This document shows, piece after piece, positions 3,001 through 9,000 of a stretch of 64,000 nt of DNA. The position numbers were made by a program. Numbering within the stretch: the stretch's first letter is position 1; each line of letters starts with the position of its first letter. Source of the stretch: Escherichia coli (lineage in GTDB: Bacteria; Pseudomonadota; Gammaproteobacteria; Enterobacterales; Enterobacteriaceae); NCBI RefSeq assembly GCF_003018255.1, contig NZ_CP027440.1; one strand, given 5' to 3'.

Positions 3001-6000
3001 GCGACAGAGTGGCGTCAGTAATGTCCGTGATACTGAGGGGGGAATTAAAAAATCTCCCGTAATACACCTGGATATTGACGGGAGAAACGAATAGTCACCT
3101 TAAGGAGTAGTTTTGATTATTGCCTGTAATCAGCGGGCGAATTGTAACGTATGGTGATTATGAGTGCCACAGGTAATTTGCAGAAATGTGAATAAATTCA
3201 GAATTTTTATTCACAGGAAGGGGCTGCGGGATATTGGTGGCAGAGGACAGAAAATATCAGGCCGGGTTTAAGGGATAAAAAAATCCCGCAGAGTTAGCGG
3301 AGCTGCGGGAAATAAACGATGAAGATTAACGTTATGGAGTTATTTTTCAGGCATCAAAAAAGTAACGCAGCGTCATTATTGCGGCTACAGGCAATTTGCA
3401 GAAATGTGAAGAATTTCAGAAATTTTATTCCGTCATGACACAGGCACCCTCCGGGGTGCCTGTTGTTTTTGGGCATAAACAGATTCAGACATCAGACAGG
3501 AGAGGGGGACAGAGTGGGTAAAGGGGGCGGCAAGGGGCACACACCGCGTGAGGCGAAGGACAATCTCAAATCCACGCAGATGATGAGCGTGATTGATGCC
3601 ATCGGTGAGGGACCGGTGGAAGGCCCGGTGAAGGGACTGCAGAGTATTCTGGTGAACAAAACCCCGCTGACGGACACGGACGGTAATCCCGTGATACACG
3701 GTGTGACCGCCGTCTGGCGTGCCGGGGAGCAGGAGCAGACACCGCCGGAAGGCTTTGAGTCCTCCGGGGCGGAAACCGCACTGGGTGTGGAGGTGACGAA
3801 GGCAAAGCCGGTGACGCGCACCATCACGTCAGCGAACATTGACCGTCTGCGGGTCACCTTCGGGGTGCAGTCACTGGTGGAGACCAGCTCAAAGGGTGAC
3901 CGTAATCCCTCTTCTGTCCGGCTGCTGATTCAGCTTGAGCGTAACGGTAACTGGGGGACGGAGAAGGATGTCACCATTAACGGCAAGACCACCTCGCAGT
4001 ACCTGACGTCGGTGATTCTGAATAATCTCCCTGAGCGCCCCTTTAACATCCGGATGGTCAGGGTGACGGCGGACAGTACCACGGACCAGCTGCAGAACAG
4101 AACGCTGTGGTCGTCATACACCGAAATCATCGATGTGAAACAGTGCTACCCGAACACGGCCATTGTGGGGCTGCAGGTGGATGCGGAGCAGTTCGGTGGC
4201 CAGCAGATGGTGGTGAACTACCATATCCGCGGCCGCATCATTCAGGTGCCGTCAAACTATGACCCGGAAAAACGCACCTACAGCGGTATCTGGGACGGGA
4301 GTCTGAAACCGGCATACAGCAATAACCCGGCCTGGTGCCTGTGGGACATGCTGACCCACCCGCGCTACGGCATGGGAAAACGCCTGGGGGCGGCGGATGT
4401 GGACAAGTGGGCACTGTATGCCATCGGGCAGTACTGTGACCAGACGGTCCCGGATGGTTTCGGGGGCACAGAGCCGCGGATGACTTTCAATGCGTACCTG
4501 TCACAGCAGCGTAAGGTCTGGGATGTCCTGGGGGATTTCTGCTCGGCGATGCGCTGTATGCCGGTATGGAACGGCCAGACGCTGACGTTCGTTCAGGACC
4601 GTCCGTCGGATGTGGTGTGGCCGTACACCAACAGCGATGTGGTGGTGGATGATAACGGCGTGGGGTTCCGCTACAGCTTCAGTGCCCTGAAGGACCGGCA
4701 CACGGCGGTGGAGGTGAATTACACCGACCCGCAGAACGGCTGGCAGACTTCCACGGAACTGGTGGAAGACCCGGACGCCATCCTGCGCTACGGGCGCAAC
4801 CTGCTGAAGATGGACGCGTTCGGCTGTACCAGCCGCGGTCAGGCTCACCGTGCCGGACTGTGGGTGATAAAGACCGAACTGCTGGAAACGCAGACGGTGG
4901 ATTTCACGCTCGGGTCTCAGGGGCTGCGGCACACGCCCGGTGACATCATTGAAATCTGTGATAACGACTATGCCGGGACCCTGACCGGCGGACGCATCCT
5001 GTCCATTGATGCCGCCAGCCGCACACTGACGCTGGACCGTGAGGTGACACTGCCTGAGACAGGTACATCGACGGTGAACCTGATTAACGGCAGCGGTAAG
5101 CCGGTGCGCGTGGACATCACTGCACACCCCGCCCCTGACCGGATACAGGTCAGCGTCCTGCCTGATGGCGTGGCGACATACGGTGTGTGGGGACTCTCCC
5201 TGCCGTCACTGCGTCGTCGCCTGTTCCGCTGTGTTTCCATCCGGGAAAACACGGACGGCACCTTTGCCATCACGGCGGTGCAGCACGTACCGGAAAAAGA
5301 AGCCATTGTGGATAACGGGGCCCGCTTTGAGCCTATGTCCGGTTCACTGAACAGCGTCATCCCGCCGGCGGTGCAGCACCTCACGCTGGAGGTGAGCGCC
5401 TCAGACGGCCAGTATCTGGCGCTGGCGAAATGGGACACGCCGCGGGTGGTGAAGGGCGTGCGCTTCAGTCTGCGCCTGACCAGCGGAAACGGTGAAAACA
5501 GCCGCCTGGTGACCAGCGCCATCACGGCGGACACGGAGTACCGTTTCAGTGGCCTGCCGCTCGGGGAATACACCCTGACGGTCAGGGCGATAAACAGCTA
5601 CGGCCAGCAGGGCGAACCTGCCACCACCACATTCCGGATTAATGCACCGGCGGCACCGGCCAGCATTGAACTGACGCCGGGGTATTTTCAGATAACGGTG
5701 GTCCCGCATCCTGCGGTGTATGACCCGACGGTACAGTCTGAATTCTGGTTCTCAGAAAAACGCATCACGGACACGGCACAGGTGGAAACCTCTGCCCGTT
5801 ATCTGGGGACAGGCAGTCAGTGGAGTGTCTCCGGCCCGCACATTAAGCCCGGGAAGGATTTCTGGTTTTATGTGCGCAGCGTCAACCTGGTGGGGAAATC
5901 TGCGTTTGTGGAGGCCAGCGGGCAGGCCAGCAATGATGGTGAAGGGTATCTGGAAATTTTCCGTGGGCTGATAGATGAGGCGCAGCTGGGGAAGGCACTG

Positions 6001-9000
6001 AAAGAGCGTATTGATGCGTCAGCCCTGCGTACTGATGTCACGCAACTGGAAGAAGATATCCGCCAGCGACTGGAGACGGATGTTGCGGAAGTGACCCGAA
6101 AAATCGGGGAGGCGGAAAACAGCCTCACGCAGCTGGTTGCGAAAAAGAATGAGGACCAGACGCTGGCCATCGCGCAGGTGAGTCAGCAGGTGGACCGGGT
6201 GAGCAGTGAAATCACACAGACAGTCAGCCAGAGCACGGAGGAAAACGCCAGGCAGATAGCGCAGGTCCGCCAGTACGTGGATGACAAAGGGAGTGAAATC
6301 ACCTCGACCACGGATAAAAAGCTGGAAGACCAGAGCGCGACCATACAGCAGATACAGCAGGTCCAGTCAGACACGAATGATGAGCTGGCTGCGCTGTACA
6401 TGCTGAAGGTGCAGAAAACGAAAAACGGCATTCCGTATGTTGCCGGTATTGGTGCGGGGATTGAGGATGCTGATGGCCAGACGCTGAGCAATATTCTGCT
6501 GCAGGCGGACCGTATCGCAATGATTACCCCGGAGAACGGCAACACCACGCCGCTGTTTGTGGCACAGGGGAATCAGCTGTTCATGAACGACGTGTTCCTG
6601 AAGCGACTGTTTGCGGTGAGTATCACGTCATCCGGCAATCCCCCGACGTTTTCCCTGACGCCGGACGGCAGGCTGACGGCCCGCAATGCGGATATCAGCG
6701 GACATATCAGTGCGAACTCGGGCACGCTCAATAATGTCGTGATAGCGGAGAACTGTACGATAAATGGCACGCTGAAAGCGGAGAACATTATTGGTGATCT
6801 GGTGAAATGTGCAGGGGTGGCTTTTCCGGTGGATGGTAGTTACCTTGCGAACGGTACACGGACGCTGACGGTGTATGACGATCACAGCTTTGACCGGCAG
6901 ATTATAATCCCGCCGATAATCTATGTCGGGTCAAAACAGGAATCCCGCACCAGTAATGACATCTGGACAGAGTGCTTCCTGCATGTTGATCAGAACGGAC
7001 GCCGGATTTATTCAGGCAGGTCAGTGGCAGAGCCGGGAATTTTCAGCGGGATCATCGATATGCCAGCTGGCGGTGGTCATATCACCCTGAGTTTTACCGT
7101 GAGCTCACGGCGTCAGAATAACAGTTGGGGCAGTTCACGAATCAGTAACCTTCAGGCGATAGTGGTGAAGAAAAACAGCGCGGGGATCAGCATCCGCTGA
7201 ACATCGCGCCCCGGGATTGCCGGAAGGAGACAAAAACCGTACAGTATGCGCGGGTGCCTTTGGCTGATGGCCGGAGGGAACACCTGAAGGCCGGATGTGA
7301 AAAGGCCCCGGACAAAACATTCATGTTTAACCCGAGGCCTGACCATTCATCCTAAGCAAGTGAAAGGTTAGCGCCTCTCCGTAAAAGGAGCAAGCGTTAT
7401 GTCGCAAAAACCGTTAAAAACCACCGTGATTTGTATCACGGTAGTGCTCATTATCTGGATCACCCACACTTCACTGTGCGAGTTCCGGTTCCGGATAGCG
7501 GGCGCGGAGATTGCGGCGTTCTTACAGTGTAAGCGGTAAGAAACCGTGGCGGGGGAGTGTACCTTCCCCGCCGACCGGTTGCTGAGGGTGATCAGCCGGA
7601 TGGCACCTTTTTAACATCAATAAATCACAAATTTTACCGCAGGCCGGGAAACCGGTCCTGCGGTTTTTTTATGGAGGAAATCCATGGCAGTCAGAATATC
7701 GGGTGTGCTGAAGGACGGGGCCGGTAAGCCGGTACCGGGATGCACGATAGAGCTGAAAGCGCGACGCACAACGGAGACGGTGATTGTCACCACGGTGGCG
7801 TATGGTCAGCCGGGGGAAACCGGCAGTTACAGTATGGATGTTGAGCCGGGTCTGTACCGGGTGACGCTGAACACGGAAGGGTACGCGCCGTCATATGTGG
7901 GTGACATTCTGGTGAAGGCGGACTCTGCACCGGGAACGCTGAATAAATTTCTGATGGACCTGGAGGACGCACAGTATTACCCGAAAGCCCTTGCAGAGCT
8001 GGAAGCGGTGGCCGCGGAAATCCTGAAACGTGCGGAAGCGTCAGCGGCGAGTGCAGAGGAAGCGAAGAAACGGGCAGAGAATGCGCGGGGACCGAAGGGG
8101 GATAAGGGAGACACCGGGCCACAGGGTATTCCCGGGCCAAAAGGCGATACCGGCGAGCGTGGGCCAAAGGGTGAGCGTGGTGAGGCAGGCCCACAGGGGG
8201 TACAGGGGCCACGGGGTGAAACCGGACCCGTGGGACCGCAAGGAGAGGCGGGTATTCAGGGGCCTGCTGGTCCTGCGGGCCCGCGAGGTGAAACCGGAGC
8301 CAGAGGCGAAAAAGGAGAGCCGGGAGATCCCGGAGGACCTCCGGGACCAAAAGGTGACACTGGCCCCAGAGGGGAGCCGGGGCCTCAGGGCCCGGCAGGT
8401 CCGAGGGGACCTGCCGGAGAGAGAGGGCCGCAAGGATTGCAGGGTGTGGCAGGGGAGAGAGGCGATACAGGTCCGGCTGGCCCACAGGGTATACCTGGAC
8501 CTCCGGGGCCAACAGGTAGCGTCGGTCCTAAGGGGGAAAAAGGCGAGCCTGGTGATCGAGGTCCACAGGGTGCTACCGGCCCCAGAGGACCACAAGGGGA
8601 AAAAGGGGATAAAGGTGACCCCGGCCCGGCAGGCCCTGCCGGTGAGCGGGGGCCGAAAGGTGATACCGGGCCGACGGGCCCCGCAGGGAAGGATGGCGCA
8701 GATTCACAGGCGAACAGAGTGCGTATCAGCGAGAAAACAGAAGTCACCTCCAGCACAGTCGTTTTCCCCTCTTTTTATGGCGGTGCGCAGGGGGAAAATG
8801 CAGCCCCTGAGGGCGCTGTGATTCTGAATATCAGGACGGCTCCGGTATCACTGACGAACGGCAATTTAGGGGCAGCCTGTGTCACCGCTGTCACTTACGG
8901 CTTCCTTCAGGTTCATGATGGCAGCCAGTGGGTTACGGTGGAACATGAATAACATGATTTTTCCGGGTGCGGAAAGCTTAAACGGGTACCCCGTCCTGAA

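Follow-up and report, generated by a model that had tools for sequence, protein, structure and literature searches.

A lambda-type J protein with a lengthened, repeat-built shaft and a separate receptor-binding tip allele in an Escherichia coli prophage

Gene J and its repeat-built shaft

The 64,000-nucleotide stretch of Escherichia coli DNA analyzed here (the window; contig NZ_CP027440.1 of assembly GCF_003018255.1) carries, within a lambda-like prophage that occupies ompW, the tail-tip and central-fiber gene J at positions 3514–7200 on the plus strand. The gene is an intact open reading frame (ORF) of 3.7 kb in a single frame, which begins with a GTG codon downstream of the ribosome-binding region GGAGAGGGGGA and encodes 1228 residues; the gpJ call of the Prokaryotic Genome Annotation Pipeline (PGAP) in the sister strain 05-3629, the closest complete genome, has identical boundaries. 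As in lambda, J follows L, K, and I in the tail operon. The prophage of 05-3629 sits in ompW beside the trp operon, and that of the window, where a Trp leader is found, does likewise. A Pfam scan recovers six gpJ domains in lambda order (FNIII-A_GpJ, Phage-tail_3, Ig_J, Ig_J_second, Phage_Tail_Tip, and Ig_GpJ_C). These include the N-terminal hub domains Phage-tail_3 and FNIII-A_GpJ (E values of 1e-37 and 2e-41), two consecutive fibronectin type III (FNIII)/immunoglobulin (Ig) domains, Ig_J and Ig_J_second (4e-41 and 5.5e-38), and the β-prism central straight fiber, Phage_Tail_Tip, at residues 944–1071 (2.3e-24). The resulting order of hub, two FNIII/Ig domains, helical shaft, β-prism fiber, and Ig-like tip is that of the solved lambda gpJ (PDB 8IYK, 8XCG, 8XCJ, and 8XCK), which the window protein matches in HMMER with an E value of 4e-97. 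By homology with lambda, J would form a trimeric tail tip and central fiber.

The initial annotation described J as lambda-like for most of its length, and this description holds: identity to lambda is 73% over the hub and the two FNIII/Ig domains (residues 1–808; 3514–5937, plus strand, as are all parts of J) and 67% over the central straight fiber (residues 959–1096; 6388–6801), where AlphaFold2 (AF2) confidence is low, as expected for an intertwined trimer modeled as a monomer. The window protein is longer than lambda gpJ, with 1228 residues versus 1132, and BLASTP aligns the two at 70% identity to residue ~830, breaks, and resumes at 51% over the last 297 residues. The α-helical shaft, as delimited by AF2 helices, occupies residues 809–958 (5938–6387) and thus comprises ~150 residues, compared with 53 in the lambda equivalent (residues 809–861). 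HMMER alignments to the lambda gpJ chains in the PDB pair window residues 810–835 with lambda 812–837 and window residues 938–998 with lambda 839–899. The ~100 residues between these flanks (838–937; 6025–6324) therefore have no lambda counterpart. The insertion point, between lambda residues 838 and 839, separates the upper shaft helix from the segment that turns into β-strands in lambda.

Self-comparison resolves the shaft into four tandem units of 29 residues (841–869, 870–898, 899–927, and 928–956; 6034–6381). The self-similarity score at an offset of 29 is 123, a value reached in none of 2,000 shuffles, for which the best offset scored 9 ± 10. Units 2–4 are 31–41% identical to one another at the protein level, while unit 1 is more weakly related (3–17%). 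At the DNA level the units are only 31–51% identical, and Tandem Repeats Finder, applied to positions 5800–6600, reports a trivial 9-nucleotide repeat alone and no 29-codon repeat; the repeat is therefore old, and DNA identity as low as this among the units rules out a recent duplication as their origin in the window allele.

The hydrophobicity spectrum of residues 841–956 peaks at 3.625 residues (29/8) with an amplitude of 1.12, compared with 0.25 at 3.5, and the corresponding peak of the lambda shaft lies near 3.4. Within each unit the core positions are 2-6-9-13-17-20-24-27, with spacings of 4, 3, 4, 4, 3, 4, 3, and 4, which correspond to two hendecads and a heptad (11+11+7) in eight turns. 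Every unit of 10 distinct alleles has a hydrophobic residue at positions 2, 17, and 20, and position 24 is mostly hydrophobic. The composition of the repeats is atypical for a coiled coil, with 39–45% Q/S/T/N, 5% Leu, no proline, and two glycines in 116 residues. AF2, run as a monomer with a 49-sequence alignment, predicts helices at residues 809–819 and 822–832, followed by one continuous helix of 124 residues (835–958), predicted to be ~18 nm long, with a predicted local distance difference test (pLDDT) score of 86–92 over residues 840–939 (about 90). The initial annotation had placed an expanded, heptad-like coiled coil at about 5940–6420, quoting a peptide that corresponds to residues 845–878. 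Its position and its expansion relative to lambda agree with the helical region found here, but the repeat is an 11+11+7 one with a period of 3.625, and a canonical heptad coiled coil is rejected on that period, even though a long uninterrupted helix is predicted.

Helices with a hydrophobic period of the 3.625 type should be almost straight, and the trimeric shaft would probably be a three-helix bundle that is likewise almost straight. With a rise of 0.15 nm per residue, the insertion of ~100 residues would lengthen the fiber by about 15 nm. The ratio of nonsynonymous to synonymous substitution rates (dN/dS) of the inserted segment is 0.19, versus 0.15–0.19 in the flanks (window versus an allele 88% identical over residues 720–999), showing that the insertion is under purifying selection. 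A search of solved structures with the shaft and proximal fiber returned only the flanks of lambda and A8 gpJ, and no solved structure spans the inserted repeats; the weak structure-library matches 9L9P, 23GD, and 25VF, whose alignments were not inspected, were absent from this search at E ≤ 0.1. The literature searched apparently describes neither the 29-residue repeat architecture nor its placement within the element that refolds in lambda.

Shaft length varies by whole units. Measured as the spacing between the conserved motifs VGKSAFVE and KVQKTKNG, it is 63–64 residues in lambda (approximately one unit), 91–92 in the Shiga toxin (Stx) 2d phage 1720a-02 (approximately two), 164–165 in the window (approximately four), and 200 in the IMG/VR locus L086 (approximately five), giving at least four classes. 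In L086 the additional length comes from exactly one more 29-residue unit, nearly identical to the one beside it, and from one extra heptad. Among 5,426 complete E. coli genomes, the lambda-length form occurs in 2,586, the two-unit form in 764, and the four-unit form in 720; the last is also present in 300 IMG/VR loci. The four-unit shaft is thus a common length allele and not a peculiarity of the window gene. Of 50,697 deposited phage genomes, two carry it: PhiR40_1 (PV340560) and PhiR49_2 (PV340570), whose shafts are 89% identical to that of the window. Both are plaque-forming temperate phages (PMC13190303), which indicates that virions with the long shaft are functional. These comparisons draw allele diversity from IMG/VR loci and a 50%-cluster library, since a word-indexed protein search gave near-identical E. 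coli fragments only. A longer form was encountered once, in a J fragment from E. coli (P0126, WP_436627100.1) whose seven tandem 29-residue units keep exact register, some being almost the same in sequence, and whose distal domain differs. Its only source is one 2.9-kb contig, and a fiber segment is duplicated inside it; the fragment may thus be a misassembly, and we do not rely on it.

The receptor-binding tip and its exchange

The last ~150 residues of J had been noted as divergent from lambda, and the divergent C terminus indeed spans about 132–143 residues at 40–43% identity. Its Ig-like receptor-binding domain (residues 1097–1228; 6802–7197) matches Pfam Ig_GpJ_C with an E value of 3.7e-37 and is 40% identical to the lambda domain and 99.3% identical to that of 1720a-02. 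Structure prediction, which the initial annotation had proposed for this region, returned a domain with pLDDT scores of 80–96 whose top Foldseek matches are lambda gpJ (8XCJ and 8XCK) and A8 gpJ (9WCA and 9WCB). The Ig-like fold of lambda is therefore conserved in the window tip.

The loops of the tip were placed by aligning four natural tip alleles on the secondary structure assigned by DSSP to the AF2 model. Conserved among these alleles are the strands and the top loops (YDDxxFDRQ, NG, and MPAGxGH), while the four loops that alternate with them vary in sequence and, in the case of L1, L2, and L4, also in length. On the basis of this alternating topology and of which loops are conserved, the variable loops probably correspond to the four bottom loops that lambda inserts into LamB. 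The putative receptor-contact loops of the window tip are L1 (residues 1103–1113; 6820–6852), which falls on a variable, indel-bearing block of the alignment, L2 (residues 1143–1149, ESRTSND; 6940–6960), L3 (residues 1171–1174, VAEP; 7024–7035), and L4 (residues 1202–1212; 7117–7149). In these loops 4 of 37 positions are identical to lambda, versus 46 of 90 in the rest of the domain. The conservation of bottom loops found in the LamB-type tips of lambda and phi21 is absent from the window tip, in which L1, L2, and L4 have also changed length. Compared with two OmpC-type alleles, the window loops are identical at 11 of 36 and 8 of 33 positions.

Among deposited phages, the window tip allele occurs in one, 1720a-02, all others having tips at most 49% identical. 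It is present in 63 of the 5,426 complete genomes, and the closest matches listed include strains of the Stx-producing serotypes O91:H21, O113:H21, and O178:H19. The J gene of 1720a-02 (KF030445, AGR48337.1) is 97% identical to that of the window at the DNA level outside the tip, and its shaft, of about two units, is 73 residues shorter.

The same tip is therefore carried on both a four-unit and a two-unit shaft. Conversely, the four-unit shaft carries several tips: among 80 loci with this shaft, 54 have a 1A2-like tip (L022 type), 12 an A8-like tip (L008 type), 10 the window type, and 2 a lambda-like tip, presumably of LamB type, the remaining 2 having truncated C termini that were left untyped. 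Mutual identity among the four types is 46–63%. PhiR40_1 and PhiR49_2 illustrate the pattern, combining the shaft length of the window with a 1A2-like tip, whose identity to the window tip is 46%. Recombination among E. coli prophages thus reassorts shaft length and tip allele as independent modules. As to where the exchange occurs, the J genes of most Stx phages follow that of the window as far as nucleotides ~3225–3243 of J (residues ~1075–1081) and diverge beyond this point, which is the conserved stretch NADISG...ENCTINGTL. Judging from these alignments, that stretch looks like a natural exchange junction.

Neighboring genes of the prophage

The window opens at 3–398, on the plus strand, within an OmpC-family porin gene, of which it contains the last 132 residues, ending in MTYQF; the full gene lies at 2878–4041 on the minus strand of locus L006. 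The gene is located between the tail genes M and L, an unusual cargo site, and is annotated by PGAP as "porin OmpC" (WP_000738904.1) in the sister strain. The precedent of phage PA-2 and its porin Lc suggested that this gene might be a clue to an OmpC receptor, but the idea was dropped, because prophages integrated at dusA have the same J C terminus without a porin gene.

The spacer between I and J (2604–3513) is ~910 bp long, compared with 60 bp in lambda, and contains no ORF of at least 60 residues. It comprises four copies of a ~220-bp repeat with the core GAAATGTGAAnAAAnTCAGAAtTTTTATTC, and a strong terminator-like hairpin followed by a T-run lies at 3440–3463, just upstream of the J ribosome-binding site. 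The last ~240 bp of the spacer alone are found, unannotated, in Stx phages such as VT1-Sakai. The spacer may encode small RNAs. Compared with Rfam, it matches no family at threshold and gives a weak antisense match to GcvB (E = 0.67). The small RNAs AgvB, AsxR, and Pas were considered for the repeats and rejected, there being no Rfam match at threshold and the Pas genes lying elsewhere in prophages.

Downstream of J, where lambda has lom, a hok/gef-family toxin gene is found at ~7399–7539 on the plus strand (coordinates mapped from the PGAP annotation of 05-3629), and Rfam reports no Sok RNA at the gathering score. PhiR40_1 and PhiR49_2 differ from the window in this respect, as they have lom downstream of J. 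Next on the plus strand are a side-tail-fiber-like gene (7684–8952), annotated as "prophage tail fiber N-terminal domain," and a DUF4376 gene (9021–9692). Together these probably form a second host-recognition module, whose influence on host range could equal that of J. Where the prophage ends on the right (10100–10901, minus strand), C4 antisense RNA (10713–10797) and isrK (10825–10901) adjoin an ORF6N-domain gene. Beyond them lie a truncated ompW fragment (~11122–11247), yciE, yciF, yciG, and then the trp operon. Far from J, at 33589–33791 on the plus strand, Rfam detects the enterobacterial small RNA STnc180 (203 bits).

Receptor, triggering, and competing readings

The receptor of the window tip is probably a protein other than LamB, as the initial annotation had suggested: the alignment on which that suggestion depended does show a C terminus that is not essentially lambda-like, and the identity of the receptor itself is a matter of probability. 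When the natural gpJ C termini A8 and 1A2 were grafted onto lambda J at the conserved fiber–tip junction, DNA was delivered to lamB-deleted cells via OmpC (Brodel et al. 2024, PMC11338833), and PDB entry 9WCB contains A8 gpJ with OmpC. The A8 (9WCA and 9WCB) and 1A2 tips share the Ig-like fold with the window tip and lie at a similar distance from lambda, and their use of OmpC indicates that tips as distant from lambda as the window tip can use another porin. The window tip is not closely related to either. As taken from the PDB alignment, the A8 sequence has 77% identity with the L008 type and 45.6% with the window tip, and the 1A2 sequence, from the supplement of PMC11338833, matches the type carried by L022 and PhiR40_1. 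The window tip shares 46% identity with the 1A2 type and 49% with the A8 type.

Phage 1720a-02 is functional: it lysogenizes both Citrobacter rodentium and E. coli K-12 DH5α (PMC6328086), and the tip receptor should therefore be present in both. DH5α carries fhuA2, which makes FhuA an unlikely candidate. OmpC is our single best guess, with chances somewhat below even, or else another general porin common to E. coli K-12 and C. rodentium. A literature search for the receptor of this tip allele or of 1720a-02 found none, and neither PMC9836094 nor a 2026 receptor-prediction preprint covers the allele.

How a lengthened shaft might participate in infection can be considered in light of the lambda mechanism, as described in PMC11101478 and PMC12617516. 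The C-terminal third of lambda gpJ consists of FNIII domains, an α-helical shaft (residues 809–861), the β-prism central straight fiber, and the receptor-binding domain; on binding to LamB, the shaft flips by ~180 degrees, and residues 841–861 change from helix to β-strands (PMC11101478). By analogy, the bottom loops of the three Ig-like tip domains of the window protein would enter a trimeric porin of the outer membrane. The β-prism fiber would then tighten and twist, passing the change up to the helical shaft, the bundle of the shaft would loosen and free the FNIII domains, and the tail tip would open for DNA exit. Both functional halves of the lambda shaft, the upper clamp helix and the lower refolding segment, are kept, with the repeat-built rod between them. 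This rod might either transmit the change over ~22 nm or swing aside with the rest of the fiber. The added length could also help the tip to reach porins under O-antigen, which blocks access of J in Gifsy-1 (PMC12312913).

Collectively, we consider it probable that the window gene encodes a lambda-type J protein with a lengthened repeat shaft and a separate tip allele, the receptor of which is probably not LamB. Several points weigh against this reading. The passage of a signal across a 22-nm shaft is in question, as is the lambda-type folding back of the shaft onto the fiber at such a length, and an AF2 monomer model represents neither a trimeric bundle and how straight it is nor the 15 nm that would be added. 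The window tip is about equidistant (43–49%) from LamB-type and OmpC-type alleles; moreover, one to a few mutations suffice to switch lambda-family tips among LamB, OmpC, and OmpF (PMC11336670), which makes sequence distance a weak predictor of receptor. In addition, 1720a-02 forms no plaques on K-12 (PMC6328086), and infection via this tip may be inefficient on that host. Finally, the portal gene is frameshifted in the ompW prophage of 05-3629, so that the window copy of J may belong to a decaying prophage, and the window starts inside the prophage, with the head genes, and hence the integrity of the head region, lying outside it.

Among alternative explanations, the strongest treats the variation in shaft length as selectively neutral: unequal recombination would have generated the extra units, which would need only to stay helical and would have no effect on host range or triggering. 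The coexistence of the one-, two-, and four-unit classes at high frequency in complete genomes, the occurrence of each class with several tips, and the sufficiency of one unit in lambda are all in keeping with it. The dN/dS of the insertion does indicate constraint, although a structural spacer would show the same. Also against neutrality are the age of the units, the stability of their number in lineages that differ by 12% in sequence, and the placement of the insertion in the element that, in lambda, transduces receptor binding. We regard neutrality as a serious possibility, its chances falling somewhat below even.

That the window J is a relic of a defective prophage, no longer built into virions, is less likely, and we think it improbable without dismissing it. 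This reading draws on the frameshifted portal gene of the closest complete genome and on the position of the head genes beyond view. Against it, the J reading frame is intact over its whole length, and the 3′ 1.3 kb of the gene (5900–7200) are 100% identical in dusA-integrated prophages with an apparently complete set of head and tail genes. Defective prophages can, moreover, still donate J to incoming phages by recombination.

The tip could still use LamB, through different loops or through a different epitope or allele of LamB. Its fold is that of the lambda tip, the characterized receptors of this tip family are all trimeric porins, LamB among them, and both known hosts of 1720a-02, E. coli and Citrobacter, have LamB. 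Nevertheless, the four putative contact loops have little in common with those of lambda in sequence or length and are slightly nearer those of the OmpC-type alleles, and A8 and 1A2, which are equally far from lambda, enter lamB-deleted cells via OmpC. Continued use of LamB is accordingly a poor prospect.

A further proposal, which we hold to be slightly more doubtful still, is that the shaft is a length-tunable, signal-carrying module: the whole four-unit shaft would refold or collapse on binding, shortening the fiber, and unit number would be an adaptive reach setting independent of the receptor. It arises because the units are paralogs of the lambda segment that changes from helix to strand and have an unusually high content of Q, T, S, V, and I. 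If this were true, the extra ~15 nm of reach would let the tip pass O-antigen or capsule on wild E. coli. Finally, that the segment is a disordered or low-complexity linker with no helical bundle, as its polar, leucine-poor composition might suggest, is very improbable given its sharp 3.625-residue period, the invariant core positions, the lack of proline and near lack of glycine, and the confidently predicted helix.

Returning to the lambda-type J protein with a lengthened shaft and a separate tip, both of these features are variants that occur commonly in E. coli prophages and recombine freely; they represent a modest refinement of known biology and do not overturn current understanding. Their interest lies in the role of J, which sets the range of cells open to a lambda-like phage or an engineered lambda particle, and J alleles of the gpJ family are carried by Stx phages and many E. 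coli prophages. The window tip allele sits on 1720a-02, a medically used model phage, and knowing which receptor it uses would extend the set of targeting modules beyond the LamB and OmpC tips now exploited. Furthermore, the repeat shaft lies in the element that refolds in lambda, and the natural alleles of about one, two, four, and five units provide a ready series with which to probe the trigger model and the role of fiber length on smooth or capsulated hosts.

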